From assembly GCA_039809385.1 (NCBI GenBank), contig JBDHUY010000011.1:2132-66131 (forward strand): a stretch of 64,000 bases of DNA, given 5' to 3'. Origin of the DNA: Candidatus Altimarinota bacterium (GTDB lineage: Bacteria; Patescibacteriota; Gracilibacteria; JBDHUY01). Made by a program: the position numbers and the translations under genes. Below the pieces are notes generated by a model, which saw only the letters and a list, made by a program, of their open reading frames with translations, searched no databases and had not been told where the DNA came from. Each line of letters begins with the position of its first letter. Positions within the stretch are counted from its first letter, which is position 1. Positions 36,426 through 50,449 of the stretch are shown here, in pieces.

Positions 36426-36806
36426 TCAGACCTCATCGACCCATGAATATAAAAGCTCGCGGGATACTTTTTCCGGCAGCCAATGTGTAAGGACTTCCGG
36501 GGAACAGATAAGCTGATATTGATCTTCGTAGAAAGGAGTATCGATGTCTGGCAAGACATAAACCCAGAGTTCACCCTGAATTACCGAAATATGCCAGTCG
36601 AATAATCCGGATTCCAGATATTTCTTCCATCCCTGTTTCTTCCAGAACGAGATCGCGCCTGGAAAGTCCTGTCCCCGCCGGGGCAACCACGAACCGTCGG
36701 GTTTGTGATTTCTGCGCGGATCATCGCGAGGGCAGAACTCGTCGACTGCCTGATAGAGACCAAGACACTTTCCCTTATTTTTGACGATAAACCGTACCAG
36801 CGCCAT
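36426..36806 (-). CDS. Hypothetical protein (Trp-rich, soluble)
   Basis: 126-aa ORF, last gene of the co-directional cluster. Confidence 0.45.
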   Translation of the reverse strand: MALVRFIVKNKGKCLGLYQAVDEFCPRDDPRRNHKPDGSWLPRRGQDFPGAISFWKKQGWKKYLESGLFDWHISVIQGELWVYVLPDIDTPFYEDQYQLICSPEVLTHWLPEKVSRELLYSWVDEV

Positions 36807-36818
36807 GAGGAGAGGCAG

Positions 36819-37730
36819 TTAAGCAGACTGTATCTTCTGTATCAAAATTTTATACAGTAATTGTCGGAAAAAACCGAAAGGAACGCGATCCTGACCACTC
36901 ACAGTATCCAGCACCAGATTAAGTACTTCCCCATGTTCAATGACTCCTGCGGCCAGCTGGGTCAAACTGTGATCATCAAGAAGAGTTTTATTAGTAGATT
37001 TCATGATCAGTAAGATTTCTTGGTACCTTCCTTTGGCAAGACACAAGGACCATAGAAGAGACCAAACATAGTCGGGAGCGTTGATTTCTCTGCAAACTTT
37101 AATTACACCCGAAAAATCATCTTTGGAAAAGTCCCGCTGCTTAAAAGTGGTATCTATCAGATGTGAAAATTCGTGCTGGGGTAAAGAAGTGGCGACAGCA
37201 ATTGAAAAAGCGATAACGTAATCTCTATTCTCCAGAAATCTATCTGCTAGACCAACCGCCATTGGCTGTGAAAAGCCGGCCGGCTGCACGATACGCAAGA
37301 TATCAGAAGTATTGAAAATAGAGCAGGGACTAATATTTTTGTGATTTGCATACGCAAAATAGAGATCGAAGATTTCCATATATTTTTCTTCTTGGTATTG
37401 TCGTTCTTTGGCAATATGGAGTAGTGTCTCAATAGAAACAAGGTCCTTTTTTTGTAACATATAGTACCAGACCAGGTCGAGGTCATTGGTAGACACAGGG
37501 CCTAATTCTTGTAACTCTTCCAGAGAAAAATGAGAAGTTTTACGGTTCCTCAAATAGCTGATCAAATCAGCCGATGCGTTTTTTTCCGCATCTTTCATTC
37601 TCTGCATTTTTGGAGAATATTTATTTTCATAGGGCTCTCTTCTATCCGGCTGTTCTGGATTTGTCATAAGAAAACTGGTTATATACTCAATAGTTCTATT
37701 AATCCCGGGAAGTTTCGACAAACGACTCAT
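36819..37730 (-). CDS. Hypothetical helical protein
   Basis: 303-aa ORF, visibly AT-rich, no TM, no recognised motif. Confidence 0.5.
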   Translation of the reverse strand: MSRLSKLPGINRTIEYITSFLMTNPEQPDRREPYENKYSPKMQRMKDAEKNASADLISYLRNRKTSHFSLEELQELGPVSTNDLDLVWYYMLQKKDLVSIETLLHIAKERQYQEEKYMEIFDLYFAYANHKNISPCSIFNTSDILRIVQPAGFSQPMAVGLADRFLENRDYVIAFSIAVATSLPQHEFSHLIDTTFKQRDFSKDDFSGVIKVCREINAPDYVWSLLWSLCLAKGRYQEILLIMKSTNKTLLDDHSLTQLAAGVIEHGEVLNLVLDTVSGQDRVPFGFFRQLLYKILIQKIQSA

Positions 37731-37852
37731 CCAACTGTATCTGACTGTTAAAGGAATTCACACAGGTTTTTTAGGGCCTATATGAGAATTCATTGAGAAC
37801 CAAAATAAACTACACAGAACAGTGATAATAACTCATGAAAAACAAGAAATCA

Positions 37853-38491
37853 TTATTGAGTAGCCAATAATTTCATTTTTGTTCTGATTGTCTCTGCAGC
37901 GGTTTGATCTGGGAGATCAACAACAAGTTCTAAAACATCTTTCATATCTTGAGGAGATACCGTTTTTTTTACCATTGCCGTAACAATCATATCGTACTCT
38001 ATTGCGCTATCAGGATCCCACGGGTGGTAGGTATTAAAAAATTTCTTTAATTCTGGAATCGAACCGATCTTATGATCAAGCACAAATTTCAGTGCTTGTC
38101 TTACGAGGACAGTACAAGCTGGATTCTCACTAAACTGATAGTCCCAGTATTCACCAAGAGCAGTTTTAAACGTTTCAATAGAACTTACATCCTTGAGAAA
38201 TTTTTCGCCTAAAAACATCAAAGCCTCGGGAGCAAGATGTACTTTAGCGAAAAGGTTTAAATGTAGTTTATCTTGAGAAGACAAAGCTTTCAGTAGAGCT
38301 AATTGTGTGGCACTATCTGGAGGACAAAAGCGAAGAAAAGCAGTTAATAAGTCATTAGATGAGAATGTTGATAATTTATCTAGAGACATTTCACCTGCAA
38401 AGAGAGCAAGTGCTGTTGGGTTTCCAAATAAGTTGCTGACGTTTTCAAATTTTGTATCAAGAATAGTTGTTTGAATATCGGTTCCTTCCAT
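37853..38491 (-). CDS. Hypothetical helical protein
   Basis: 212-aa ORF, AT-rich, 24 nt downstream of the PKD gene. Confidence 0.5.
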   Translation of the reverse strand: MEGTDIQTTILDTKFENVSNLFGNPTALALFAGEMSLDKLSTFSSNDLLTAFLRFCPPDSATQLALLKALSSQDKLHLNLFAKVHLAPEALMFLGEKFLKDVSSIETFKTALGEYWDYQFSENPACTVLVRQALKFVLDHKIGSIPELKKFFNTYHPWDPDSAIEYDMIVTAMVKKTVSPQDMKDVLELVVDLPDQTAAETIRTKMKLLATQ

Positions 38492-38515: not shown

Positions 38516-40813
38516 TCATTCTACCCCTACCTGCTCACTAAACTGACTACTGATATTATCCTTACTCGTAATCGTCAGTACCACCATGTACGTTCCAGGA
38601 GTCGTAAAAACATGCGTCGGCTTACGGTCGGTAGAAACCGTACCGTCGCCAAAATCCCAGAAGTATTTAGCGATAGGACCATTCGACTCGGTCGGATCAA
38701 ACACCACGCTCAGCGGCGCCGCTCCGGTTTTTACATTGGTTTTAAAGCGAGCCACCACCGGAACCTCGGAGACAACGATATCCTGCGTGGCGGTCTCTTT
38801 TTTGGCATCGTTGGTAAAAACGGTGAGCTGTACTTTATAAACCCCTACCTGCGCAAAGGTATACTGTATCTGCGCCCCGTAGATCTTGGGCGGCGTTCCG
38901 TCGTCAAAATCCCACTGATACTGCGTAATCGTCCCGCCGTTATAGCGCGAAGCCGAAGCGTCAAAAAGAACAGTTAACGGCGCCGCTCCCGAAAGAGGGC
39001 TGGCTTTGATAATCGCCTCCAGAGGTTTGGCTTTGGTTTTAATCAAAATAGTCTGGGACACCTCGTTTTGCTGCGCATCCACAACTTTGAGCGTAACGGT
39101 GCGCTCCCCTTCCTCATAAAAAGTCTGCACGTCAGGCTTGGCGCCCCTGGTCTCGAAATTGCCATCGCCGTCAAAGTCCCACTGATAATCCACGATATCG
39201 TTATCCTTGTCGGTCGAGGCCGAAGCGTCAAACGTCACCGCTAAGGGCACGCTGCCTTCGATCACGGCTCCGCTTGCCCCCTGCTTGAAACTCGGCGTGG
39301 TTTTCAGCTGAATCACCGGCGACGAAGTTTTGCCCTTTACTATGATATCGACCGAAGACGATCCCTGATTGGATTTGTCGTCGGTAAGGGCGAGATTTAC
39401 TTTATAGGTACCCGGTTTTTTAAACGTATGGGTCGCGGTCACCGTCTTCTCCCGCAGAGTATTATCGCCAAAATCCCATTCGTATTTAACGATTTTACCT
39501 GCCGGACTGCGCGATTCGGAGGCATCGAAATTTACAGTCAGCGGGGCATCCCCTTCCATCGGAACTGCCAGAATTGAGGCTTTGACAGTATCGTCGCGTA
39601 CGCCGGTGATCGTAATGACTTTTTCGGCTGTATTGTACTTTTTATCGCGATTTTCAACCCGTAAACGCACCGTATAGGTTCCGATTGTCTCGAACGTATA
39701 GGTAAGCTTGGGCGTTGTACCCTCGTTAAAACGGTTATCGCCGTCGATCTCCCAGGCATACGTGACATCTTTAGGGTCCTGGCTGTTGGGATCGTAAGAC
39801 TCTGAGGCGTCTAATGTTACTGTCAGAGGTGCCTCGCCCTTGTCTTTATCGACGTTGATGACGGCTACCGGCAACAAATAGGCAATCGATATGTTCTTTT
39901 TGAATTGTTGCGTTTTTTCTTCTCCTTTGTTATCAACGGCGGTAATCGTGAGGGTAACCGGATAATTCCCGGCTTTAAATGTTTTGTCGTAATTCCAGCG
40001 CTCTTCCTTGCCGCCGATCCGGTCGCTCTTGCCGTCGCCGGTAAAATCCCAGTCGTACTTTACGATCTCGTAACCGCGGGTAAGTTTATTTTCCAGATTG
40101 GAGGCGTCAAAAATGAGTTCGATGGGCGCGGTGAGACCGGTCGTGACAGCGAGAGGTTCACGCGTTTGCGCATTATAGACCACGATATCCCCTTGAATAG
40201 CCGAATTGCCATCCACCCGTACCTGTCCGATACTGAAAAACGCAAACACCCAGATAACGATATCGACCAGCAGAATCAGGGTTGTAATAAAAATGGCAAT
40301 CGTGGTTTTTCGTTTTCCGGCCTTGTCGTCCTTGTGGGTCAGAATACGACGAAAAATATTGACCACGACAGCGATCAGCAGCAGCATCGAAAAGAATCCG
40401 AAGCTGATATTGACCAGGCTGCTCAGCAGATTTTTGACTGCGGCCGGATCCAGGCCGAGCTGTTTAAAGAAAGGATTGTTCGGATCGCCGTTAAACGCGA
40501 ACACCGAGAGTAAAACGAACAAAACGAAGAGAAAAGCGAATAATCCGAAACAGCCCAAAAAGAAACCGGCTCCGATCTTCTTGCCCTTGACCACTTTTTT
40601 CCCGGCAGGCCTGGTCTGGTTTGGCGCAGCTTGAGTTGCCGGAGTTTCTGTCATAGGCTGAGTCGGTTGAGAAGAAGCAGCATTGGTAACAGGAACAGAT
40701 GTATTAACCTGAATATCCTCTGCCAACGGACCGATATTGTTGGTACCGGGAACGGTATCACCAGAAGCAGGCTCTGGATTTTGAGGCGGAGGATTGGGAG
40801 TAGGCGTATCCAT
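38516..40813 (-). CDS. PKD-repeat membrane protein (disordered N-tail, 3 TM, six PKD domains)
   Basis: Six 'Y.W[DE][FI][DGT]' PKD cores: YDWDFTGDG, YAWEIDGDN, YEWDFGDNT, YQWDFDGDG, YQWDFDDGT, YFWDFGDGT. Pro/Thr/Gln-rich N-terminus. TM segments GFFLGCFGLFAFLFVLFVLLSVFAF and others. Confidence 0.85.
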   Translation of the reverse strand: MDTPTPNPPPQNPEPASGDTVPGTNNIGPLAEDIQVNTSVPVTNAASSQPTQPMTETPATQAAPNQTRPAGKKVVKGKKIGAGFFLGCFGLFAFLFVLFVLLSVFAFNGDPNNPFFKQLGLDPAAVKNLLSSLVNISFGFFSMLLLIAVVVNIFRRILTHKDDKAGKRKTTIAIFITTLILLVDIVIWVFAFFSIGQVRVDGNSAIQGDIVVYNAQTREPLAVTTGLTAPIELIFDASNLENKLTRGYEIVKYDWDFTGDGKSDRIGGKEERWNYDKTFKAGNYPVTLTITAVDNKGEEKTQQFKKNISIAYLLPVAVINVDKDKGEAPLTVTLDASESYDPNSQDPKDVTYAWEIDGDNRFNEGTTPKLTYTFETIGTYTVRLRVENRDKKYNTAEKVITITGVRDDTVKASILAVPMEGDAPLTVNFDASESRSPAGKIVKYEWDFGDNTLREKTVTATHTFKKPGTYKVNLALTDDKSNQGSSSVDIIVKGKTSSPVIQLKTTPSFKQGASGAVIEGSVPLAVTFDASASTDKDNDIVDYQWDFDGDGNFETRGAKPDVQTFYEEGERTVTLKVVDAQQNEVSQTILIKTKAKPLEAIIKASPLSGAAPLTVLFDASASRYNGGTITQYQWDFDDGTPPKIYGAQIQYTFAQVGVYKVQLTVFTNDAKKETATQDIVVSEVPVVARFKTNVKTGAAPLSVVFDPTESNGPIAKYFWDFGDGTVSTDRKPTHVFTTPGTYMVVLTITSKDNISSQFSEQVGVE

Positions 40814-40940
40814 AACAGGGAGAAAATAATGTAGAATCAGGAAGTTAGAATCAAGAATCTAAAAGCATGGCAGAATAATAAGAGAAATTCATGGAAATTG
40901 ATGGAAATTGGTAAAAATGTGTTGCAGGTAATCGTACTTT

Positions 40941-41115
40941 GGGCTGTCAGCGGCCAGTGATCAGCGGTCAGTGGCGGGCCATTAGCATTCATACATCATA
41001 CATCTGTTCTCTTAACTCCTGTCTTGCTGTTGTCAGTCGTCTGTAGGCTGTAAGCTGTCAACGTCAATCATATTCCCTACTCCTAACTCCGTTCTCCCAA
41101 CTCCTGTCTTGCTCC
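40941..41115. repeat. Continuous heptad-register spacer (about 24 units)
   Basis: tcagcgg|ccagtga|tcagcgg|tcagtgg|cgggcca|ttagcat|tcataca|tcataca|tctgttc|tcttaac|tcctgtc|ttgctgt|tgtcagt|cgtctgt|aggctgt|aagctgt|caacgtc|aatcata|ttcccta|ctcctaa|ctccgtt|ctcccaa|ctcctgt|cttgctc. Confidence 0.85.
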
Positions 41116-41119
41116 CCGA

Positions 41120-44100
41120 TCACTCCGAGTGAAGCGAAGAGTCTGTCTCCTGCCCATGCTTATTGGGCCCATTATACGGCAAATTCGGTTTCTTTTGAAA
41201 GGGCTTTGCACCGAACTTTTTATAGGGAGGAGTTGGGCGAGTAAACGGCCGTTGAGAGGAAGAAAGCTGTTTCGTATTGTTATTATTCCCGGGCGGCAGT
41301 TCGGGGAAATTTTGTCCGGGCGGCAGTTCCTGCTCGGCGAAGCGTCCTTTGATTTCGGGAGTATTGAAGTTCGGTTTCGGCGGAAACTTTTTAGGATAGG
41401 GTTTATACGGTTTTTTTTGAAATGGCTTTTTTGACTTCCACGGTTGCGAGGATGTTGGTTTCGACACAGGTTTTTGCGCTTCGGGGGAAGATGGCACCTC
41501 AGGCAAAGTAGTCTCGGAAACCGGGGGGAGATTTGCATCTACGACAGGTGCAGGAGGAGGCAGGGCATCCGGTGTACCTGCAGTACCGGTCGGCTGGTCT
41601 GCACTGTCTGCAACAAGAGGTTCAAACGGAGACGTGGCAATGCCGGAAGTAGGCGGCAGGGAATCGGAGTTGAGAGATCGATCTGGAACAGATGACGCCG
41701 GTTCAGTAGGCGTCAAAAAATCAGGTATGGCGGCATCGGCCGGTTGAGAGACTGGCAGAGGTGTAGGAGGAAATATGCCAAAAGGATCGTCGTTAACAGT
41801 AGGAAAGGAAGAACCGGCAACGGCAGGCGAATCTGAGAAGGAGGGCATGGCCGGAGTTTGAGCAGATGTTGGAGATACTACCCCAGCGAAAGGATCTGGG
41901 GTTGTCGAAGAAGAGGACGTCGAGGCTGCAGGTTGATCTCCGAAAATATCGATATCAAACGGAGAGGCCGGAACACTCGGATTAGACGGGGCAGGATCTA
42001 AGAAAGAGGGAGTAACCGCGGCTGAGGTGGCAAAAGGATCGACGGCTTGCGGAGGAGATGCCGGAGGGTTCTGATTTTTATCGGTACTTCCGAAAATATC
42101 AATATCAAAGGGCGATGGAGATGGAGGCGCGGGAGTATCAAGAAACGTAGAGGGTGTTGGCGGCAACGCCGAACCGAACGGATCGGATGCAGAAATAGAC
42201 TGCGGATCACTCGCACTCGGTCCGGATGAAAAGATATCGGTGTCGAAAGGAGAAGCAGGGCTTGCGGAAGACGTCGGATTCGGGACAGATGTATTCAGAA
42301 AATCAGGCTGGGGCGAAGCAGCAGCTCCAAATGAGCCGGTTTGCTGGTTGGAAGAACCGAAAATATCAATATCAAAGGGCGAAGGTGTTTGCGAAGGGTT
42401 TCCTGTCGCTGCGGATAGTGAAGGTGAAGGTGATGGTGTTGACGCAGCAAATGGATCGCCCGGTGCAGAAGGCTGCGAATTATTTCCCGGTCCGCTTTGA
42501 GAAAAAATATCCGTATCGAAAGGAGAAGAGGCGCTGATTCCGGGAGTAGGCGCATCCCCAAAAGGAGTTGCTCCGGAGGCGACAGGTGGATCTAAAAAGG
42601 AAGGCAAGCTTGCGGAATCGTCGGGAGACGTGCCGGGAGACGGCGGGGAGAAATCCAGAAAAGACGCTGTAGGCGGCGTGCCAGACTCTGGGGAAACAAC
42701 AGGATTTGCAGCAGGCGGAACTGTCCCTTCACTCGAATCAGTCGCTCCTATCTGAAGCCAATCGGGCATCTGGCCTGCCGAAGCCTGAGGAGGTTCGGCA
42801 GGGGTCGCGGGAGCTGGAGGCTCGGCAACTGGTTCGAAGTTCCCATCGGGAGAAGGAATCGGTGTAACGTCGATGACCGAAGGTGGGGTACTCTTGGGAG
42901 GTTCGGGCTTCGAAGATGCCTGAGCTTGGTCGCCTTCGTCTTTTTTACCTGGCCTGAATCGAGAGATCCAACCGGTTACCATACCCCGCAAATCCAGAAT
43001 AAACTCTTCAAAATCGAGATCTTCCCGGTTGGTAATACGTTTATACGCTATAAACGAAACAAACAGCACGATTCCCAGAAACAGGAAAATGCCGATAATC
43101 CAAAGCGCGAACTGCAAAATACCGAAGAGAAAGGACAAAAACAGATTTTCCCCTGCCGGTGCGGGTGATGAAGGGCCTTCTGCTGCTGCTCCGTTTTGAT
43201 TCTCGTTGGTAACAGTGCCCGGTTCCGCATTAAGATTGTCATTGGTATTGGCAGTTTCGGGAGCATTGAGGTTTAGATTAGCATCGCCGTTCTGATTAGA
43301 ATTAGCCGTAAGCACGGGAGTCAGAGAGTCGGCAATCACCAAAAGTACGTTACCTACTTGCTGTTTGGCATCGTCAGGTAATTTCTGACTTTCGGCAACA
43401 GCCGTGCGAGTCTCGTCCAAAGCCTGGGAAACCGCGGCAGCATCGATTCCGTAATTCGACTTAAGCGATATCAGCGCTTTATTGACTTTTATTTTGGTCA
43501 AAGGTTCGGCCTCGGCAATAATATTTTTGATACGCTGAATCGAAGAATCGATATCGATAAACGATTCTTTCAGGTCTAAAATGTTCTGGATATTACCGAC
43601 CAGACGGTCTCTTTGTTCTTGAGTAAGCTGTTCTGCGCGCAGGACCAGCTCCTTGGCCTGTGTCAGTGCGTCCTTGTCACCGCGGGATAGGAGTTCGCGG
43701 ATCTGGTTCTGTAGCTCCTGGGACAGAGAACTCTGCGAGATGGCCGTAACAGCATCGTCGAGATTTTTATTGATAATTTCGGTTTTGGAAGGCTGCGGAT
43801 TAGCATTGAGATTGGCATTTTCGGGCAGGACGACCGCGTCGTCGAAAATAATGGGAACCGTTACCTGATCCATGATATTGTTATCGCCGACAACGGTAAG
43901 CTGTACCTCGATCGGCTGAGGCAAAAAGGTATACGATATGCCCGAACCATTGGTAAAAGAAAGGGTATTTTTATTGTCGATATCGTTATTTTTGATACCG
44001 TCTCCGTCGCTATCCTGAAAAACATTGCGATCGATGCGGTATTCGCGGATTTTACCGATCGAATAACCGCCAAAGAACGTTACCTTGTTTTTTTCACGGG

Positions 44101-47100
44101 TGAGGTGAATCTTCCGGTCAAGTTCATTTACTTCGGGGACGGTAATCAATACAGCCTGTAACGATTTAGACGGATCAAGTTGGACATTCTTAGGCAACTG
44201 CCCTTTGACCAGCGTAACGGTTCGAACTACGTTGTCTTTTATTCCTCCTTTGCCCGTGACGTCGAGTCGCACCTGATAGCTGCCATAGTCGTTAAACGTA
44301 AATTGAGGATTTTCCTCCTGGCTGTCTTTGTCATTTTGAGCGCTGCCATCACCGTCGCTGTCACGCGAAAGATCGAAGTCCCAAGTATAAGAAAGAGGGG
44401 CAGGGCCGCTGGAATTATTGAGAAACAGAACAGTTTTATCGACCTGAGTAAACAGAAAAGCGGCAGTGGCAATACTTTCGGAACGGGGGTTAATCAATAC
44501 CGAAACGTTGCCCTTGTTGCTCAATCCTTGATATTCGACCCGGGCAGTCACATTGTAATTTCCCGGAGTATCGTACACTCGCGTGACATAAGCCCCCGAC
44601 GTCGTATCTTCGAAAGTTCCGTTCCCGTCAAAGTCCCAGGAAATCCGGGCATCGGGAACCGGTTCGCCTTTCGCGTTCCGACCGATCGCGGTAAACTGAA
44701 CCGCTTCGCCAGCCTTGACGCTGGTTTTATTAACGCTGACCTCTACCTGCAGGGGCTCGTTAGCACGGTTTGTTACGGTCAATACTCCGGTATTTTCGCC
44801 CAGCACATCATCGCTCCGCACAACCGCCCCCTCGTTATCGGTCATTTCGACGACAAAACGATAGGTAACGCTCTGACCGCCAAAACCGCGCGTAGGAATA
44901 TTAAACGTGGTAGAAGGAGTGGTAGTAGTACGCACGCTCAGATTTTCTTCGGTACCGTTTTCGACATAAAACCATTTATACGAAACGATTTTGCCGTCAC
45001 GGTCGGTTGCCCCCACGGCACGCACGGCGACTTGCACCGGAGTCAATAGCGACGCAGGCGCGTCCAATACCAGATCGGTGAGCTGAGGAGGCCGGTTGCG
45101 TACAGCGACCAGAAGGGGCGAAGCACTGGCAGTTTTACCCGAATCTCTGTCGGTAATCGTAAGTTGTACCGAAAAACAAGTATTGCCGGACACGTCGTTA
45201 AAACGGTGCGTAATCGTTTTTTTGGTACTGACGGTTCCGTCGCCGAAATTCCAGGAATATTCCAGAAAGCGGCTGGAGCCGTCACGGTTGATAGCACGCG
45301 AAGCGTCAAAACTGGGATTATCGTTACGGGAAATCAGGAGCCCCGGCCCGCCGTTACACAAATTAGGCGTAAGCGGTAACATTTCACCGTTCAAACTATA
45401 GTCGATCAAGGCTACGGGGCTGTCGGCTTCTCCGACATACACATTGGTCGTGGTCGTAGTATCGTTATTATCTTTGTCAAAAACGGTAACTTTGACAGGG
45501 TAAACCCCGGCTGTCTTGAAACGATAGGTATATTGCGTTTTATCCGTCTGCTCTTTCTGTTCACCGAAATCGTAAAGATAAAAGATGGCACCGGGAGCAT
45601 TGACTTTGACGGTAACGTCTTTGCCAACCTGAGTGACCGGCGGATCGATCGTGACATCGGCGCTGAGTACTGATGTAATCGAGACAGTCTGCTCCCGCTC
45701 CACGAAATTTTGCGAAGAATCGGTCACGCGTAATTTTACACGGTATTCTTTGGCTGCCGGAAAACGATATTCTCCCCGGCTGCCGGCCTCGTTCGTATTT
45801 TCCAGCGTAACCGGTGTACCATCTACCAGCCAGGTAAACGAGAGCGTTTCATTTTGATCGGGATCATAAGAATTAGTCGCGTCAAAGACAAACTGATTTG
45901 GATGTCCGACATCTTTCTGTTTGAGAGACAAAGTAACAACCGGCGGCTTGGAAGTCACTTTGACTTGACGAGTATCCTGAACGGTTTTGCCGTCATTATC
46001 CGTGACTTGGAGCAAAGCCGTATAGACACCCGGCGTCTCGAATTTGTAAGTAAAGCTTTCTTCTTTCGTCTCGCGCAGAACTTCACCCGCTCCGGTCGTG
46101 ATTTTCCAGCTGAGCGAATTGACTCCGCTGGGGATCTTTGACGTATTGGCGGCAAAACGGAACGTCGTATCGGTAGTACCTTCTTGGGGGGTAATTGTGG
46201 CCGAGGCGATCGCATCGGCCACCTCGACCGTTATACTTTTGACGATCTTTTGATTTCCGGTATCCGTGAACTGGACCGCAACCTGGTAACGACCGACTTT
46301 GTTATATTTATGCGTTATCGAAACCGGCGTTCCGTTAAAACTCTGACGATTACTGCCATCGCCAAATTCCCAGTCGGTTTTGGCGATATCGAGTCCCACG
46401 GTCGAGCTGGTGCCGGCAGGATCGAAGAGCAGCCCGTCCTGAGCTTCTTTGAGGGTTACTTTGACGAGATCTTCTTGGGTAACATCGACTTGATTGATTT
46501 TTAGCTGAACTGTCGCCAGGGGTGCTTCGGCTTTGACGCTGATGGTAGCATCCCCGGGCAAAACGACACTGTCGCCGCTGGCACTCTTGACTTCCAGATG
46601 CACCACATACGTATTAGGAACCCGAAAGGTTTCCGAGACGTTGGCACCGTTTCCTAAGTCGCGGCGCTGCCCGCTGGAATCGAGATACCACCAGCTGTAA
46701 TTGTTCGTAGGAATCGTATTGTTGGTCGGATCGGAAGAAGAGGCTCCGTTAAAGAGAACAGTGAGCGGAATTGGCCCGGAGCTTTTACTGGCATTGATTA
46801 CCGCACGCATCTGAGGCAGTTTGACTACCTGCTGCTTGAGAGTCTCGATTTTGGTTTGAATGTCACGACCGGTCGAAGAAGAAGGACTTTGCTGGTAAGT
46901 CTGCAGTGCGTCGTCCAGTTCCTGAGCAGCTTGTCCTGCCTGAGAGGTAGGAGGTAATTGTTGAATGATCGGCTGAAGTTGCTCACGATAACGGTCGATA
47001 ATTGTTTTGGATTCGCTTTGGGGACGAGAGCGTAACTCTTGCAACAACTGGCTCAAAATCCGATCCAAATCCTGGGCGGTATTACCGGTAGCGCTGGTAA

Positions 47101-47986
47101 CTCCCCCACTCGAGGAAGTTCCCTGACCGGCATTTAACAATTGTTCCAGTGCGTTCAAAGCTTTTTTCAGATCGTCACTATTTTGAGGACTGGGATTGGT
47201 CTTGAATTTGTCGAGCGCCTGTAAAACCGCCTGTAACTGCTGGGCCGACGCATTCTGGAGCGACGAATCAAGTTGCTTTATGGTAGTCTGTAACTGAGTT
47301 TTAAGTGCGTCGATTTCGCGTTCGAGAGTACCGGTATCGGCGGGCGGATTATTGACGGTGTTATAAATATTATTAATCGTGGGTGCGGCCGGATTGCTGC
47401 CAGTACCGCTACTGCTCCCCGAGGAGCTGGAAGAAGAAGACGATCCGCTTCCCGAAGAACCTGAAGAAGAGCTCGAGGCATTTGAGCCCGAAGAAGAGCT
47501 TGAACTGCTGGTGTTGGTAGAAGTGCTACTACCGGATGGCGGACCGTCGATAACATTGACGAAAAAATTGACGATAGCATAGGAGATCAGAATAATCACG
47601 ATGCCGACGCCGGTAAACACGATCGTCTTTTGAGATTTCTTGACCTCGCCGTCGTTGCCGGCAAAGGCTACCATGCGGAACCCGGCGTAGATTACGATAA
47701 CGACCGCCAACAGCCCCAGAAATGTCAGAAAATAGTTGATGATCGTGGTGACGGCTTTGCGAATCTCGTCGTTTTTTCCCTGTTCGCAAATCGTCGGAAA
47801 TTTCACGCAATCTTCTTCTTCAAGGCCGGGCCCGGTCGGAACACCGTTAAACTGAGCGGAAGCATGCGGAATATGCAAAACAAAGAGCGTTCCAGCCATC
47901 AGCACTAAAAATAATACTCCCTGCAGGCGCCGAAAAAGCGAGGAAAAACGATTCGACAAGTACTGTGAGTTATAATCAAACGACAT
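41120..47986 (-). CDS. Giant (2288 aa) surface protein: signal peptide, pilin-like hairpin module, Ser-rich linker, coiled coil, about 10 PKD/Ig-like domains, membrane anchor, long disordered Pro/Ser-rich tail
   Basis: Single uninterrupted ORF. N-terminal 'AVTTIINYFLTFLGLLAVVIVIYAGFRMVAFAGNDGEVKKSQKTIVFTGVGIVIILISYAIVNFFVNVI'. PKD cores (DWEFGDGS, YSWNFGDGT, ISWDFDGNG, YTWDFDLS...). TM 'FLSFLFGILQFALWIIGIFLFLGIVLFVSFIAYKRI'. Confidence 0.9.
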   Translation of the reverse strand: MSFDYNSQYLSNRFSSLFRRLQGVLFLVLMAGTLFVLHIPHASAQFNGVPTGPGLEEEDCVKFPTICEQGKNDEIRKAVTTIINYFLTFLGLLAVVIVIYAGFRMVAFAGNDGEVKKSQKTIVFTGVGIVIILISYAIVNFFVNVIDGPPSGSSTSTNTSSSSSSSGSNASSSSSGSSGSGSSSSSSSSGSSSGTGSNPAAPTINNIYNTVNNPPADTGTLEREIDALKTQLQTTIKQLDSSLQNASAQQLQAVLQALDKFKTNPSPQNSDDLKKALNALEQLLNAGQGTSSSGGVTSATGNTAQDLDRILSQLLQELRSRPQSESKTIIDRYREQLQPIIQQLPPTSQAGQAAQELDDALQTYQQSPSSSTGRDIQTKIETLKQQVVKLPQMRAVINASKSSGPIPLTVLFNGASSSDPTNNTIPTNNYSWWYLDSSGQRRDLGNGANVSETFRVPNTYVVHLEVKSASGDSVVLPGDATISVKAEAPLATVQLKINQVDVTQEDLVKVTLKEAQDGLLFDPAGTSSTVGLDIAKTDWEFGDGSNRQSFNGTPVSITHKYNKVGRYQVAVQFTDTGNQKIVKSITVEVADAIASATITPQEGTTDTTFRFAANTSKIPSGVNSLSWKITTGAGEVLRETKEESFTYKFETPGVYTALLQVTDNDGKTVQDTRQVKVTSKPPVVTLSLKQKDVGHPNQFVFDATNSYDPDQNETLSFTWLVDGTPVTLENTNEAGSRGEYRFPAAKEYRVKLRVTDSSQNFVEREQTVSITSVLSADVTIDPPVTQVGKDVTVKVNAPGAIFYLYDFGEQKEQTDKTQYTYRFKTAGVYPVKVTVFDKDNNDTTTTTNVYVGEADSPVALIDYSLNGEMLPLTPNLCNGGPGLLISRNDNPSFDASRAINRDGSSRFLEYSWNFGDGTVSTKKTITHRFNDVSGNTCFSVQLTITDRDSGKTASASPLLVAVRNRPPQLTDLVLDAPASLLTPVQVAVRAVGATDRDGKIVSYKWFYVENGTEENLSVRTTTTPSTTFNIPTRGFGGQSVTYRFVVEMTDNEGAVVRSDDVLGENTGVLTVTNRANEPLQVEVSVNKTSVKAGEAVQFTAIGRNAKGEPVPDARISWDFDGNGTFEDTTSGAYVTRVYDTPGNYNVTARVEYQGLSNKGNVSVLINPRSESIATAAFLFTQVDKTVLFLNNSSGPAPLSYTWDFDLSRDSDGDGSAQNDKDSQEENPQFTFNDYGSYQVRLDVTGKGGIKDNVVRTVTLVKGQLPKNVQLDPSKSLQAVLITVPEVNELDRKIHLTREKNKVTFFGGYSIGKIREYRIDRNVFQDSDGDGIKNNDIDNKNTLSFTNGSGISYTFLPQPIEVQLTVVGDNNIMDQVTVPIIFDDAVVLPENANLNANPQPSKTEIINKNLDDAVTAISQSSLSQELQNQIRELLSRGDKDALTQAKELVLRAEQLTQEQRDRLVGNIQNILDLKESFIDIDSSIQRIKNIIAEAEPLTKIKVNKALISLKSNYGIDAAAVSQALDETRTAVAESQKLPDDAKQQVGNVLLVIADSLTPVLTANSNQNGDANLNLNAPETANTNDNLNAEPGTVTNENQNGAAAEGPSSPAPAGENLFLSFLFGILQFALWIIGIFLFLGIVLFVSFIAYKRITNREDLDFEEFILDLRGMVTGWISRFRPGKKDEGDQAQASSKPEPPKSTPPSVIDVTPIPSPDGNFEPVAEPPAPATPAEPPQASAGQMPDWLQIGATDSSEGTVPPAANPVVSPESGTPPTASFLDFSPPSPGTSPDDSASLPSFLDPPVASGATPFGDAPTPGISASSPFDTDIFSQSGPGNNSQPSAPGDPFAASTPSPSPSLSAATGNPSQTPSPFDIDIFGSSNQQTGSFGAAASPQPDFLNTSVPNPTSSASPASPFDTDIFSSGPSASDPQSISASDPFGSALPPTPSTFLDTPAPPSPSPFDIDIFGSTDKNQNPPASPPQAVDPFATSAAVTPSFLDPAPSNPSVPASPFDIDIFGDQPAASTSSSSTTPDPFAGVVSPTSAQTPAMPSFSDSPAVAGSSFPTVNDDPFGIFPPTPLPVSQPADAAIPDFLTPTEPASSVPDRSLNSDSLPPTSGIATSPFEPLVADSADQPTGTAGTPDALPPPAPVVDANLPPVSETTLPEVPSSPEAQKPVSKPTSSQPWKSKKPFQKKPYKPYPKKFPPKPNFNTPEIKGRFAEQELPPGQNFPELPPGNNNNTKQLSSSQRPFTRPTPPYKKFGAKPFQKKPNLPYNGPNKHGQETDSSLHSE

Positions 47987-48007
47987 ATGCGAAAAGCAAA
48001 ATAAAAG

Positions 48008-48457
48008 TTATCCCCGTACCGCATTGATCACGGTAGTGACCAGAGCATACGCTATCAGAATAATGATAATACCGGTTAGAATGGCGATGATCAGTTTTGT
48101 CGCTTTTTGGCGATTACCTTCATTATTAAACGATGTGATATACAAAACGCCGGCATAAATAATACCTACTACCGCAATTAGGAAAATGAATCCCAGACCA
48201 AACTGAATCCATCCGAAAATCAACGCGCGGGCATTGGTTGTAGTTGAGACATTTCCCGACAACTCGTTCTTCGTCGCATCGATTCCGGGCTGGATACCGC
48301 ATTCGTCTCCCTGGCAATAGGGATTTTTACTATCGAAAGCCGTATCGGTATTGGAAAAATCCGTATTCTGGGCATGCACGTTCAGTGGTACATGTATCGT
48401 CGACAGCATGCTCCATATAAAGATCATTGCTCCTATGTGAATAATCTTTTTATTCAT
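48008..48457 (-). CDS. T4SS-pilin-like (TrbC/VirB2-like) protein, single module
   Basis: Signal peptide, then 'LIFGWIQFGLGFIFLIAVVGIIYAGVLYITSFNNEGNRQKATKLIIAILTGIIIILIAYALVTTVINAV'. Confidence 0.7.
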   Translation of the reverse strand: MNKKIIHIGAMIFIWSMLSTIHVPLNVHAQNTDFSNTDTAFDSKNPYCQGDECGIQPGIDATKNELSGNVSTTTNARALIFGWIQFGLGFIFLIAVVGIIYAGVLYITSFNNEGNRQKATKLIIAILTGIIIILIAYALVTTVINAVRG

Positions 48458-48524
48458 TTTGATCGAGTATAAACGCCAAATTATTCAGAAAATTATACCA
48501 TATACATCCTCTTCTATACAACGA

Positions 48525-49433
48525 CTATCCCGAATTTAACAACGGTGCGGCAAAAAAGGTGACGATAGTATAGGCGCTGACCAGCAATGCCAGTCCCAAT
48601 ACTACCCACAGGATGGTTTTGCGCGCCTTTTGAACTTTTTGATCGTTCCCAAAATTCACGATCATGTTGATGGCGGCATAGAGCAGCATCAATATTCCCG
48701 AAATCGCGCTGAAACCGAGGATATAATTGACGACTTGCAATACCAGACTAATCGCGCCGGACGGATTGGGATTAACCGAAGTTTCACCGTAGAAATTCTG
48801 AATGAGCGGGCGCGCTATCAAAATCACAATCAGACCGAATGTCGTTGGAATAAATACCCGTTGTAATTTTTTGATCCGGGCCTCGTCGCCCAGGGCCGTG
48901 ATCATGCGTACCCCGCTGATAATGATCACAAAAACGGCGGTGATTGCCAGAAAACTGAGGAAAAAACTCAGGAGCGGATTGACTATCCGTTCGCGAATGT
49001 CGTCCGGAAAATCGCGGATATCGTTGACGGAACGTCCGCTTGGCGTAAAGAAGATTGAGACGATGACCTCAGCTACTTGCATGAGGATCAGACCGAACAG
49101 CAAAATAAAAATACCGGTCAAACTTTTTTTATTCGCATCGGCATTACCGCCGGCGGTCACCATCCGCAATCCCGATATGATGATGAGCAACACGGCTATT
49201 ACCGCGATAAAACTTTTTACCACTCCGGCATAGTAGATCAGAATATCCCGAAGTCCCTGGGCGCCTTCGGTGCTGACCGGAGCATTAAAGGCTTGATCGG
49301 GAGTACCTAAAAGAAAATCAAAAACACTACGCGGATCTTGCTGGGCATAGGTCGCCGGGAGAGCCACACAGCAAAATGCCAATCCTGCCAAAACAAGCGC
49401 TACTGCCAATGGAAAAGAAAAACGCTGTTTCAT
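48525..49433 (-). CDS. Membrane protein with three tandem pilin-like hairpin modules
   Basis: Signal peptide plus 3 units. Examples: VVKSFIAVIAVLLIIISGLRMVTAGGNADANKKSLTGIFILLFGLILMQV and VVNYILGFSAISGILMLLYAAINMIVNFGNDQKVQKARKTILWVVLGLALLVSAY. Confidence 0.7.
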   Translation of the reverse strand: MKQRFSFPLAVALVLAGLAFCCVALPATYAQQDPRSVFDFLLGTPDQAFNAPVSTEGAQGLRDILIYYAGVVKSFIAVIAVLLIIISGLRMVTAGGNADANKKSLTGIFILLFGLILMQVAEVIVSIFFTPSGRSVNDIRDFPDDIRERIVNPLLSFFLSFLAITAVFVIIISGVRMITALGDEARIKKLQRVFIPTTFGLIVILIARPLIQNFYGETSVNPNPSGAISLVLQVVNYILGFSAISGILMLLYAAINMIVNFGNDQKVQKARKTILWVVLGLALLVSAYTIVTFFAAPLLNSG

Positions 49434-50392
49434 AATATTATAGGTGCGGCAAATTTCAGAACTTCGGTAACTACCGTATAGGCAGAATAGATGATCACCA
49501 TAGCAATCAGCGTTCCCTGGACTATTTTGATCCCTTTCGTGCGCAGGGAATCGTTCGCTCCCGAAAAGATAAAATAAAATCCGCCCAGGATTAGTCCGGC
49601 AAATCCGATCGGGACAACAAAAAGAAGCATTAAACGCAGCAGGGATCCGATCACCCCGTGACCTCGTTCGACATCGCCTTCGAAAGCGATACGCTGGAAT
49701 TCTCCGGCCAGGGCAATCACGATCAACCCCAGAATACTCCAGAGTATTTGGCGACGGTACTTCGCGGCAGCATCATCGGCACCGCTGGCACTACTGATCA
49801 CGATTTGGTATCCGCTGATAATAATCGATACGATCGCGACGGTCCCGGCAATGCCCCTCAACGCCGTGATAACGATGCTGATAATATTTTTCCAGTCGAA
49901 CAAACTGGGTTCGTTGAGGCCGGCGCGGGGGACAAACGAGGCGAAAAAGAACTCTCCGACATTCAGGAAGATAAACCCGACCACGGCGTACAAAAGTCCC
50001 AAACGCGCTTTTTTACTGGCTTCGTCGTTAGCGGAAAAGACCATCCGGATACCGAAAAAAAGTATATAAAAAACCGCAACTCCCTGAAACAATATCCGGG
50101 TTGTCGGCAAGGCTTGATTGCGTACAAAATCGTTAAACGTATTATTCCCGTTCGTCGAATTTAATTCCGGTAAACTGGTACCCGGCAGATCAAAAGCTGC
50201 CTGGGTGAGAAAGGGGATCGTAAAAATTCCCGCAATAAAGAGAAAAACCGCTAGGACAAAGAATATGTTCTGCGCTGATCTGGCATTTTTTTCCGAAAGA
50301 AAAGCAGCAAATCGATTTCCCGGAGATCGTAAAACGAAATTCTTCGGAACATGTACGGGTTGGCGACTATGTTTTTGGTATGTGTATTGCAT
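49430..50392 (-). CDS. Membrane protein with three tandem pilin-like hairpin modules
   Basis: 3 units. Examples: VAVFYILFFGIRMVFSANDEASKKARLGLLYAVVGFIFL and FAGLILGGFYFIFSGANDSLRTKGIKIVQGTLIAMVIIYSAY. ATGA overlap with the next gene. Confidence 0.7.
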   Translation of the reverse strand: MQYTYQKHSRQPVHVPKNFVLRSPGNRFAAFLSEKNARSAQNIFFVLAVFLFIAGIFTIPFLTQAAFDLPGTSLPELNSTNGNNTFNDFVRNQALPTTRILFQGVAVFYILFFGIRMVFSANDEASKKARLGLLYAVVGFIFLNVGEFFFASFVPRAGLNEPSLFDWKNIISIVITALRGIAGTVAIVSIIISGYQIVISSASGADDAAAKYRRQILWSILGLIVIALAGEFQRIAFEGDVERGHGVIGSLLRLMLLFVVPIGFAGLILGGFYFIFSGANDSLRTKGIKIVQGTLIAMVIIYSAYTVVTEVLKFAAPIIL

Positions 50393-50449
50393 TTATATAT
50401 AATCCGTTTATTGTAGCACAAGATATTTTTTTTATCAAAGCCGGGAACT

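Follow-up and report, generated by a model that had tools for sequence, protein, structure and literature searches.

Patescibacteria (CPR) possibly account for a large share of bacterial diversity, and the cultivated ones live attached to host cells. Arrays of VirB2-like pilins are widespread among them (PMC12102498) and are essential in Southlakia, the one species tested (PMC10633639). The survey of Quinonero-Coronel et al. 2025 described arrays that comprise 2-11 genes and average 25% identity, reported no fusions and detected no adhesins (PMC12102498). Whether the Patescibacterial VirB2-like pilins form a pilus remains open (PMC12857230).

The window analysed here, a whole stretch of 64,000 nucleotides, holds a gene cluster that shares with these arrays the hairpin family, the Sec-type leader, the clustering of divergent pilins, the chromosomal location and the CPR genome. 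It differs from them, whose pilins have ~100-150 aa, because one hairpin carries an extension of ~2140 aa and two genes encode triple hairpins, because a second PKD protein probably bears a further hairpin, and because the cluster does not lie beside virB4. Pilin arrays of Patescibacteria are already known, and we found no description of a fusion of pilin, PKD array, anchor and tail such as the one discussed here. We think it somewhat more probable than the contrary that, in a CPR bacterium of the Peribacteria/Peregrinibacteria type, this reading frame (41120..47986, minus strand) specifies a VirB2-like pilin of a conserved, "modular" kind, co-assembly with its neighbours and an adhesin role included.

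The conjugative VirB2/TraA pilins resemble the N-terminal part of the protein: they too have a long leader that is cleaved off, and two helices that a basic loop joins into a hairpin. Since both termini of the mature VirB2/TraA pilin face outwards, a C-terminal graft would sit on the surface of the fibre. C-terminal epitope fusions to F-pilin are tolerated. In diderm conjugative systems the adhesin VirB5 is a separate tip protein, the pilin is small and the T-pilin is cyclised, whereas here the putative adhesin is fused to the hairpin. To our knowledge, there is no natural VirB2 fused to a giant adhesin.

Pilins with adhesin modules grafted to their C-terminus represent an established and widespread strategy in type IV pili, and the grafts vary (PMC8179133). 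As in the PilB and PilC pilins of Streptococcus sanguinis (Raynaud et al. 2021, PMC8179133), the pilin module of the window protein is small and N-terminal, and it is followed by a putative adhesin module, which a filament would display. Yet, modular type IV pilins have an unrelated fold, begin with a class III signal peptide, possess one helix at the N-terminus and are assembled by PilB/PilC-type systems, none of which occurs here: the leader is of Sec type, has 45 residues and lacks the class III motif (G, cleavage, F/M-T-L-x-E), and there is no type IV pilin family among the Pfam and NCBIfam matches of the 2288-aa protein. They also lack a second membrane anchor and a cytoplasmic tail, whereas the window protein has an anchor and a tail predicted to be cytoplasmic.

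Two other kinds of surface protein invite comparison. PrgB-type Gram-positive adhesins are large surface adhesins that accompany a monoderm T4SS-type system, and the window protein would fill the same functional slot. It has no sequence relationship to them, its anchoring would be by pilin hairpin and TM helix, and a search across its 2288 aa for an LPXTG sortase signal (LP.[TSA]G) found none. PamR offers a comparable concept: it is an Ig/FnIII-type protein associated with the Pam pilus of CPR cells, has a C-terminal TM helix, and has been proposed to stop the elongation of the filament and to tether it to the membrane (bioRxiv 10.64898/2026.03.03.709456). The Pam pilus is built by donor-strand exchange (chaperone-usher-like) and is devoid of VirB2-like hairpins, unlike the window cluster. 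We rejected a PamR or chaperone-usher-type CPR pilus as an identification, because the corresponding weak NCBIfam match (E 0.0037) reflects generic Ig-like similarity.

Architecture of the 2288-residue protein

The reading frame is intact, with 2288 codons from its ATG, and reads open in code 11, so that genetic code 25 was not needed; this agrees with an origin in Peribacteria/Peregrinibacteria rather than in Gracilibacteria proper. A first-pass annotation had outlined its layout from the sequence, and the coordinates given there were all matched by features of the reading frame. In order, the protein consists of a signal peptide, a VirB2-like T4SS_pilin hairpin, a Ser/Gly linker, a Gln/Leu-rich region, a PKD array, a helical stalk, a TM helix and a tail:

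47852..47986, minus strand: Sec-type signal peptide, aa 1-45 (RR n-region and hydrophobic core; sequence, hydropathy)
47759..47851, minus strand: short acidic N-terminal segment of the mature protein, predicted extracellular, aa 46-76 (sequence)
47549..47758, minus strand: VirB2-like T4SS_pilin hairpin, aa 77-146 (helix 1, basic loop RMVAFAGNDGEVKKSQK, helix 2)
47342..47548, minus strand: Ser/Gly-rich flexible linker, aa 147-215 (composition 46% Ser, 13% Gly, 11% Asn)
46787..47341, minus strand: Gln/Leu-rich region, aa 216-400 (composition 15% Gln, 12% Leu)
43787..46786, minus strand: PKD / Ig-like array, aa 401-1400 (Pfam, jackhmmer)
43298..43786, minus strand: membrane-proximal helical stalk domain of eight helices, aa 1401-1563 (AlphaFold2 single sequence, pLDDT 64-89)
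43151..43297, minus strand: disordered N/A/G/P-rich linker ahead of the anchor, aa 1564-1612 (pLDDT below 40; sequence)
43040..43150, minus strand: second membrane anchor, a long hydrophobic helix, aa 1613-1649 (hydropathy peak 2.88)
42947..43039, minus strand: juxtamembrane segment, aa 1650-1680 (KRITNR, then conserved helix DLDFEEFILDLRG)
41123..42946, minus strand: low-complexity tail, aa 1681-2288 (composition, motifs)

The poly-Ser/Gly linker of the first-pass annotation, its anchor followed by KRITNRED and its stretch of ~640 low-complexity residues (640 residues, with 20% Pro and 14% Ser) were all found where expected. What it called Gln/Leu-rich coiled-coil segments is indeed rich in these two residues; we read the region as helical, from composition only, and it is colinear with orthologues from aa ~307 on. 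The leader is likely cleaved at ASA/Q, and the free pilins of the T4SS_pilin family have a leader of the same kind, ending in AFA before the Q. The mature N-terminal segment has a C-x6-C pair (C60, C67), on the predicted outside, and the tail is without Cys.

The PKD array gave domain matches well above the cut-offs, with 188.7 bits for Pfam PKD_4 (cut-off 27, E 1.6e-56, eight stretches) and 135.8 bits for Pfam PKD (cut-off 23.5, E 4.9e-40, six stretches). A self-seeded jackhmmer search delimited eight units over aa 513-1258, of which the one at aa 983-1060 is marginal (domain score 3.9). About ten PKD/Ig-like domains had been proposed; at a spacing of ~90 aa, there is room for about ten units between aa 405 and 1400, of which eight were detected. 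AlphaFold2 places low-confidence beta structure at aa 1260-1400. Two DSDGDG motifs in the array, on the predicted outside, resemble Ca-binding sites.

The hairpin and its neighbours

The cluster comprises five genes, namely two for triple-hairpin proteins, one for a single pilin, the fusion and one for a second protein with hairpin and PKD domains. We compared it with related Peribacteria/Peregrinibacteria/Gracilibacteria loci, numbered L below (n=80 in the GTDB survey). The neighbours of the fusion are:

49430..50392, minus strand: 320-aa protein with three tandem pilin hairpins, first in the cluster (T4SS_pilin E 1.3e-10; orthologue L091:785-1723, 41%)
48525..49433, minus strand: 302-aa protein with three tandem pilin hairpins (T4SS_pilin E 1.2e-11; orthologues in L091, 42%, and L008, 42%)
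48008..48457, minus strand: 149-aa single-module VirB2-like pilin, immediately upstream of the fusion (orthologues L091:2669-3139, 42%, and L008:4090-4596, 35%)
38516..40813, minus strand: 765-aa PKD partner protein, downstream of the fusion (PKD_4 E 9.3e-77; three TM segments)

When the whole window was scanned in six frames with an HMM of the module, exactly eight modules emerged, all within 41120..50392(-): three in the 320-aa protein, three in the 302-aa protein, one in the 149-aa protein and one in the 2288-aa reading frame. This agrees with the eighth pilin-like copy, behind a signal peptide, that had been proposed. Homology of the hairpin to the neighbouring modules had been set beforehand as a test, and a profile built from the seven neighbouring modules alone, with the hairpin left out, matched the reading frame with 53 bits (E 1.4e-15). 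Its identity to proteins that carry the annotation PF18895 "pilin [Patescibacteria]" is 50-62%, and it keeps every invariant position of the PF18895 pilin alignment, a degree of constraint beyond what simple anchoring in the membrane would require. These comparisons place the hairpin in T4SS_pilin (PF18895), the VirB2/TrbC-type pilins. The term "pilin-like" of the first-pass annotation can be narrowed to this family, as the module is neither a generic nor a type IV pilin.

Single-sequence scores were lower. Taken alone, the 2288-aa protein reached 20.1 bits with Pfam T4SS_pilin, under the gathering score of 26.6, and 32.3 bits with NCBIfam NF045849 ("Mbov_0395 family pilin-like"), under the cut-off of 40; the hairpins of 12 pilin-PKD reading frames scanned from related loci scored 27.5-38.9 bits, above the Pfam T4SS_pilin threshold. 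The cleavable Sec leader, the two hydrophobic helices (aa ~77-103 and ~120-146, from sequence and hydropathy) and the short basic loop joining them are those of a VirB2-type pilin; the loop RMVAFAGNDGEVKKS corresponds to aa 104-118. AlphaFold2 models the hairpin as two helices in a helix-turn-helix (pLDDT 77). The small size typical of T4SS_pilin (~100-150 aa) is not shared: the free pilins in the alignment end 3-10 residues past helix 2, and here ~2140 residues follow it. A PDB sequence search with the pilin profile gave no meaningful match, and Foldseek of the hairpin model gave nothing at E <= 0.001 and no significant fold match to solved pilins; the Foldseek result is uninformative, because any helical hairpin matches a two-helix hairpin. 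Proteins matched by the module alignment in a protein index all had at most 148 aa and included none of the window proteins, the index being apparently length-bounded and fusions therefore beyond its reach. The full-length query against an index of 5.8 billion proteins returned itself and one weak PKD match among the matches listed; orthologues exist publicly, so the lack of further matches does not mean absence.

The paralogues within the window are 18-33% identical. The 765-aa protein has a disordered N-terminal tail of ~80 aa, a TM1, a hairpin formed by TM2, a basic loop and TM3, and six PKD domains. Comparison of this hairpin with the pilin modules by hhalign gave a probability of 92% (E 6e-7), and 1.9% with a reversed control, so that TM2-loop-TM3 is probably a divergent ninth pilin-like hairpin. 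VirB4, VirB6 and VirB3 genes were not found beside the cluster, which is flanked by housekeeping genes both in the window and in related loci. The sole T4SS-type ATPase of the window is VirD4/TraD-like (3541..6141, 866 aa), lies 35 kb off and scores far under the family cut-offs. T4SS components are dispersed or undetected in Gracilibacteria (PMC12102498). A promoter and terminator scan gave counts no higher than in shuffles; its one notable site is the promoter-like TTGATA-17-TACAAT at 50438..50410(-), upstream of the 320-aa gene, which is weak evidence.

Conservation of the cluster in relatives

The first-pass annotation had called the topology unusual. The architecture is, however, no one-off oddity: 14 of the 80 related GTDB loci encode a single-module pilin that is extended at its C-terminus by 300 aa or more. 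T4SS_pilin and PKD matches were both present in 12/12 of the pilin-plus-extension reading frames scanned, and also in protein P0154, and the nearest neighbour of a fusion hairpin is another fusion hairpin in 12/15 cases. Polypeptides with several hairpins in tandem, up to 17 modules long, are frequent in the family. A metagenome scan with an alignment of the anchor found nothing, and a degenerate DNA pattern for the tail motif LDFEEFILD then located L091. The orthologue in this locus is 45% identical over ~1400 residues, has a C-x6-C pair at the matching place and stands in the same order of five genes. The L008 orthologue is 34% identical over 1745 aa (44% in the hairpin). Every window paralogue has a one-to-one orthologue in L091 with 41-49% identity; since the paralogues are much less alike among themselves, each hairpin protein would have its own conserved role. 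The 765-aa orthologue directly follows the fusion gene in L091, L008, L056, L074, L079 and L059 (35-49% identity), and the partner gene abuts or overlaps the stop codon of the fusion in six loci.

The C-terminal half is less constant. Anchor and tail are missing or very short in L059, L079 and L056, which suggests that they are not essential to the core function of the family, and there is no second anchor in L059, L024, L005 and L039. In the latter three, the pilin-PKD half and the PKD-anchor-tail half are separate adjacent genes. Because stalk, anchor and tail are thus a separate gene in some relatives, the window protein is a natural fusion of two proteins, which would work together. The architecture defines a conserved family whose operon is conserved too; its second anchor and tail are add-ons that vary between members.

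The tail

The anchor is conserved in L091 and L008, and AlphaFold2 places a juxtamembrane helix at aa 1659-1677. Farther along, the tails are mostly unalignable; nevertheless, two short islands persist whether the gene is fused or split. The first, LDFEEFILD, reads the same in the window, L008 and L091, with a related [S/L/T]F.E[F/I/L][I/L/V][D/E] in four more anchor-tail modules, and PDWL (aa 1741-1744, 42755..42766) recurs as PDWL or PSWL in 7/7 related tails. An acidic part follows (aa ~1776-2075, 41762..42661) with five SPFD[I/T]DIF, five DPF[A/G] and four FLD motifs at a spacing of ~46 aa, and the C-terminal ~160 aa (41123..41602) form a basic stretch rich in Lys and Pro. Tandem Repeats Finder found no DNA-level tandem repeat behind these peptide repeats. 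The DIFG and DPFA motifs of the window protein recur in L008 only, and the DIFG/DPF repeats are not conserved in the closest orthologue, L091. We considered whether the DPF/FDxDxF repeats are eukaryotic AP-2-type endocytic motifs and rejected this, as the spacing is not that of FxDxF, the tail is predicted cytoplasmic and the repeats are absent from the closest orthologue.

Possible assembly and alternative explanations

In the mechanism that we propose, the leader would be cleaved and the hairpin would insert with both ends outside and the basic loop inside, as in VirB2/TraA propilins, leaving the PKD array extracellular and the tail cytoplasmic. The hairpin would co-assemble with the other eight into a VirB2-type fibre, or into a membrane platform at its base, and in either case the PKD array would be displayed as the host-binding adhesin of the assembly. 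Since the second anchor would tether this subunit, its place would be at or near the base, or it would serve as the leash of a short fibre. The conserved short motifs of the tail may recruit a cytoplasmic partner, thereby linking host contact outside to the cell interior. The first-pass annotation had suggested a fibre-tip or fibre-integrated adhesin, a role that it may indeed have; a second anchor and a partner with a tethered hairpin would suit a membrane-proximal role (base or platform) at least as well as one at the tip. The extra TMs, namely the second anchor and the N-terminal TM of the partner, would hinder the extraction of these hairpins into a long fibre.

Could the reading frame be an artefact, in which an assembly chimera or a frameshift joined a pilin-PKD gene to a separate PKD-anchor-tail gene? 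The adjacent halves in L024, L005 and L039 give this idea some substance, because a lost stop codon could mimic a fusion, but we find it hardly credible. The fused form with a C-terminal anchor is present in six independent assemblies (window, L091, L008, L074, L079 and L056), and the alignments with L091 and L008 stay colinear through the region of the junction (aa ~1260-1400). Moreover, the second gene of the split type opens with its own signal peptide, whereas there is none inside the window reading frame. The orthologues looked for in related genomes therefore speak against an assembly chimera. It is also quite improbable that the tail is extracellular, with the hydrophobic segment a re-entrant hairpin or the whole topology inverted, and the tail an extension that spans the wall or is directed at a host. 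With ~37 residues the hydrophobic stretch is unusually long, the DPF-type motifs and the basic end of the tail might conceivably address a host, and low-complexity segments rich in Pro, Ser and Thr are typical of the parts with which surface proteins of monoderms span the wall. Yet, AlphaFold2 models the anchor as one uninterrupted helix of 40 residues (aa 1613-1652, pLDDT ~90) with no hairpin, and its counterparts in L008 and L091 have R or K in their first third, which looks like an interfacial helix ahead of an ordinary TM of 21-23 residues. Two or three K/R residues come right after the anchor in 7/7 related anchor-tail modules and none just before its core. After a cleaved leader and two hairpin helices, a PKD array lying outside needs an odd number of further spans. 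The cytoplasmic tail of the first-pass annotation is thus also our prediction.

A weightier objection, though one that we still judge unlikely, is that the hairpins never leave the membrane: the nine would form a channel lining, a lipid scaffold or an anchor, and the 2288-aa protein would be a doubly anchored coat adhesin whose PKD array arches over the surface, with no pilus at all. Both PKD-bearing hairpin proteins have an additional tethering TM, and the tandem proteins might be plain polytopic membrane proteins. The NCBIfam family that matches best groups pilin-like conjugation proteins from ICEs of the wall-less Mycoplasma, elements for which we know of no described pilus. Monoderm T4SSs are generally without pili (PMC12102498), and neither VirB4 nor VirB6 adjoins the cluster. 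However, the family-invariant loop and helix positions are kept along with the high identity to free pilins, members without the second anchor exist, and nine distinct hairpins conserved one-to-one suggest an ordered hetero-oligomer rather than simple anchors. The pilin arrays of Southlakia are moreover essential and lie inside a T4SS cluster (PMC10633639). Returning to the modular VirB2-like pilin, a bolder version would see the five-gene operon as a self-contained, new type of monoderm CPR organelle, with nine hairpins forming a short conjugative-type fibre or pore, two tethered PKD subunits, and the 2288-aa protein as base or leash coupling host contact, mechanically or by signalling, through LDFEEFILD and PDWL to a cytoplasmic partner such as the VirD4-like ATPase. 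This is speculative and we consider it distinctly improbable; if true, it would provide a link from outside to inside of a kind that no description of a T4SS pilus includes.

Implications

A pilin hairpin bearing a variable PKD array is a concrete candidate for the missing host-binding component of CPR pilin arrays, and its large ectodomain gives an experimental handle for antibodies or tags. Double anchoring would impose a testable geometric constraint: either the hairpin stays within reach of the membrane, as set by the ectodomain, or the assembly must be something other than a free fibre. In the tail, the conserved motifs point to a cytoplasmic partner, and the split and fused forms of the gene identify two proteins that are expected to interact.

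A pilin hairpin joined to a PKD array

The reading frame at 41120..47986(-) is open over 2288 codons from an ATG start and encodes a pilin hairpin of VirB2 type and a PKD array on one continuous chain. It begins 21 nt past the stop of the gene for a 149-aa protein, which is preceded on the same strand by genes for 302-aa and 320-aa proteins. The window is chromosomal (G+C ~45%) and carries dnaG, rpoD, greA, argS, eno, pnp, glyA, mutS, queA and a YceD-family gene. Every coordinate given in the first-pass annotation proved correct.

Layout of the 2288-aa protein
aa 1-45: predicted Sec-type leader, with RR and a likely ASA/Q cleavage site
aa 46-76: short acidic stretch with a C-x6-C pair
aa 77-146: pair of hydrophobic helices with RMVAFAGNDGEVKKSQK between them
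aa 147-215: linker (Ser 46%, Gly 13%)
aa 216-400: Gln/Leu-rich, helical on composition only
aa 401-1400: PKD/Ig array
aa 1401-1563: helical domain
aa 1564-1612: disordered linker
aa 1613-1649: long hydrophobic anchor helix
aa 1650-2288: KRITNREDLDFEEFILD, then tail (Pro 20%, Ser 14%)

All three upstream proteins match the Pfam family T4SS_pilin (PF18895; E 1.2e-11 for the 302-aa and 1.3e-10 for the 320-aa protein) and, weakly, TrbC/VirB2. The fusion itself stays below the curated cut-offs, both for T4SS_pilin (aa 79-142, 20.1 bits, threshold 26.6) and for the NCBIfam 'Mbov_0395 family pilin-like conjugal transfer protein' (32.3 bits, cut-off 40), and the homology of its hairpin was therefore tested independently. 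Against an HMM built from the seven neighbouring modules only, it scores 53 bits (E 1.4e-15). Scanned in six frames, the window as a whole holds exactly eight modules, all in the four-gene block (3 + 3 + 1 + 1), so that the fusion does carry the eighth copy proposed at first reading. Its hairpin shares 50-62% identity with PF18895-bearing proteins of 117-120 aa named 'pilin [Patescibacteria group bacterium]', retains all invariant positions of the alignment with these pilins, and is modelled from that alignment by AlphaFold2 as a helix-turn-helix (pLDDT 77). About 2140 residues follow helix 2, compared with 3-10 in free pilins.

In the ectodomain, Pfam detects PKD_4 in 8 stretches (E 1.6e-56) and PKD in 6 (E 4.9e-40), and self-seeded jackhmmer finds eight units at aa 513-1258. 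Of the roughly ten PKD/Ig domains first counted, eight are thus detected, and the spacing allows about ten at aa 405-1400. This part also holds two DSDGDG motifs, which we take to resemble Ca-binding sites. A single-sequence AlphaFold2 model of aa 1260-1700 shows beta structure of low confidence as far as aa 1400, then eight helices (aa 1401-1563, pLDDT 64-89) followed by the disordered linker, an anchor formed by one unbroken 40-residue helix (aa 1613-1652, pLDDT about 90) and a juxtamembrane helix at aa 1659-1677.

A conserved family

Related loci were sought across GTDB, each species represented by a single genome, using the hairpin aligned with the pilins nearest to it. The 80 best of 452 matches, to which all family frequencies refer, come nearly all from MAGs of Candidatus Peribacteria, Peregrinibacteria and Gracilibacteria. 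Among the 124 module-bearing ORFs in these 80 loci (hmmsearch on six-frame ORFs), 102 are single pilins, 8 have three modules, and 14 have one N-terminal module and extend C-terminally by 300 aa or more. All 12 extended ORFs scanned with Pfam combine T4SS_pilin with two to seven PKD stretches, as does the library protein P0154, and the pilin match exceeds the Pfam threshold in 12/12 scanned locus ORFs. The nearest neighbour of a fusion hairpin is another fusion hairpin in 12/15 cases.

Orthologues of the full-length protein were found, as the first-pass annotation had suggested looking for. The one in locus L008 (4547-11002, 2152 aa, Peribacteria MAG CAYOUH010000004.1) is 34% identical over 1745 residues (aa 317-1960) and 44% in the hairpin. 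That in locus L091 (3028-8361, on the 228-kb metagenome contig Ga0272448_1000021), located by matching degenerate DNA that encodes LDFEEFILD, is 45% identical over ~1400 residues. Both have the same anchor and long tail. Word-indexed protein search missed these 34-45%-identical orthologues, and its negatives are not evidence of absence. Because independent assemblies hold the same colinear protein, the possibility that 41120..47986 is an assembly chimera is rejected.

Two Gracilibacteria fusions (L053:9806-12499 and L046:9668-12475) insert Cys-rich DUF4215-type repeats (GECGNGILE...) between hairpin and PKD domains; the grafted ectodomain thus differs among lineages, as would be expected of a host-specificity determinant.

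The operon and its 765-aa partner

The fusion, conserved across a CPR clade, shares its operon with eight further hairpins (that of the partner being probable). Gene order in L091 is exactly that of the window, with one-to-one orthology.

Window genes and their L091 counterparts (protein identity)
320 aa, three hairpins: 313 aa, 41%
302 aa, three hairpins: 304 aa, 42%
149 aa, one hairpin: 157 aa, 42%
2288-aa fusion: fusion ORF, 45%
765-aa PKD protein: 754 aa, 49%
queA, upstream and divergent: queA, 60%

Orthologues of the five cluster genes are 41-49% identical, compared with just 18-33% among the paralogous modules inside the window, so that each hairpin paralogue is of old origin and has been kept in its own right. 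The paralogues would accordingly differ in structural role and not be interchangeable variants.

The 302- and 320-aa proteins (48525..50392(-)) are chains of three VirB2-like hairpins apiece. Such tandem 'polypilins' proved common in an exhaustive profile search (72,433 family representatives), the top matches having 2-17 modules; P0241 (1775 aa) has 17 module stretches and P0117 (820 aa) has eight. A survey of Patescibacteria type IV secretion systems tallies pilin genes in arrays and leaves covalently linked hairpins unmentioned (PMC12102498).

Downstream of the fusion gene lies the partner.

38516..40813(-): 765-aa protein with a ~80-aa disordered N-terminus, TM1, a TM2-RRILTHKDDKAGKRK-TM3 hairpin and six PKD domains

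In L008, L056, L074, L079, L059 and L091 its counterpart comes directly after the fusion gene, touching or overlapping the fusion stop codon; in the window the gap is 306 nt (40814..41119). A promoter-like TTCAAA-17-TATAAT occurs at 41199..41171(-), within the 3' end of the fusion ORF. Aligned locally with 23 pilin modules by hhalign, seven partner hairpins gave Prob 92% and E 6e-7 over 73 columns (controls: reversed 1.9%, column-shuffled at most 0.3%). The partner hairpin is therefore probably, though not provably, a divergent ninth pilin-like module, and an uncleaved N-terminal TM probably tethers the protein with its disordered head in the cytoplasm. If so, both PKD proteins of the operon would be hairpin-adhesin fusions, and in each a single additional TM helix, extended by a disordered stretch in the cytoplasm, would serve as tether.

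The 212-, 303- and 126-aa ORFs further downstream (36426..38491(-)) match no Pfam or NCBIfam family, have no counterpart in L091 or L008, and are apparently not part of the conserved operon.

A separable anchor and tail

In three loci (L024, L005 and L039) the pilin-PKD protein lacks the C-terminal anchor, and the next gene (L024:14046-16388, L005:13782-15989, L039:13618-16317) encodes the stalk, anchor and tail half, with its own signal peptide, PKD, the 'EYRIDR...DSDGDG' region of the window protein, a TM helix and a tail. Since its two halves are separate genes there, the window protein is a natural fusion, which implies that both act together; as a split and fused 'Rosetta stone' pair, the two proteins are predicted to interact physically. 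Elsewhere the module is reduced: the tail after the anchor has just 6-13 residues in L079 and L056, and L059 lacks the anchor.

Tail elements in the window
42947..43039(-): LDFEEFILD segment
42755..42766(-): PDWL island
41762..42661(-): five SPFD[I/T]DIF, five DPF[A/G] and four FLD motifs, spaced ~46 aa

We compared seven anchor-tail modules (window, L091, L008, L074 and the three split genes). All have 2-3 K/R residues straight after the anchor helix and a juxtamembrane [S/L/T]F.E[F/I/L][I/L/V][D/E] helix, with LDFEEFILD identical in three. All tails also carry the PDWL island (PSWL in L008; two PDWL copies in L024) within unalignable acidic Pro/Ser/Thr-rich surroundings. The island and the juxtamembrane helix are likely binding motifs for a cytoplasmic partner. 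The repeated tail motifs were not found as tandem repeats at the DNA level; related DDIFG and DPFA motifs are present in L008 and absent from L091, the closer orthologue. DPF resembles eukaryotic AP-2 appendage-binding motifs only superficially. The first ~480 tail residues have a net charge of -42 and the final ~160, Lys/Pro-rich, of +9, a basic end echoed by L091.

Topology and proposed working

With the leader cleaved, the two helices of the hairpin plus the later anchor helix put the PKD array on the outer side and leave the tail in the cell. This is supported by the positive-inside pattern in 7/7 anchor-tail modules, by the anchor being one continuous helix, by the Cys pair and DSDGDG falling outside with no Cys in the tail, and by the need for PKD domains to stay extracellular. 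The tail is thus very probably cytoplasmic, in line with the first reading.

On insertion, VirB2/TraA propilins have their two termini outside and a basic loop inside, and in assembled F- and T-pili both termini lie at the outer surface; a C-terminal graft would therefore be displayed. Type IV pili commonly include pilins onto which adhesin modules have been grafted (PMC8179133). VirB2-like pilin arrays are already known to be widespread in Patescibacteria and are essential in Southlakia, with no adhesin found and pilus formation only a possibility (PMC12102498, PMC10633639, PMC12857230). In full-text literature searches, neither the fusion of a VirB2-like pilin with an adhesin array nor the split or fused anchor-tail module nor the five-gene operon was found described, and family proteins stand in public databases under generic names or no name.

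We propose that the hairpin would dock the adhesin into a hairpin assembly, and that the PKD array, which varies among relatives and in some Gracilibacteria adds DUF4215 repeats, would bind the host surface. The second anchor may keep the fusion subunit at or near the base, or leash a short fibre, and the conserved tail motifs could recruit a cytoplasmic partner. In the main alternative, the hairpins all stay in the membrane, and the fusion is a surface adhesin with two anchors that docks to a complex there. Because both PKD proteins have extra tethers, multi-hairpin polypeptides abound and T4SS genes are absent next to the cluster, this alternative stays plausible, though less likely than the reading above.

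In the window and related loci, no VirB4 or VirB6 genes adjoin the cluster, which is flanked by housekeeping genes. The sole T4SS-type ATPase of the window (3541..6141(-), 866 aa, VirD4/TraD/CedD-like) lies 35 kb off and matches TrwB_AAD_bind, DUF87 and TraG-D_C weakly, all far under curated cut-offs. It adjoins a 431-aa PEGA-domain protein (6185..7480(-)), with no further recognisable T4SS genes beside it. Its orthologue in the related locus L057, 34% identical, is close to a pilin gene.
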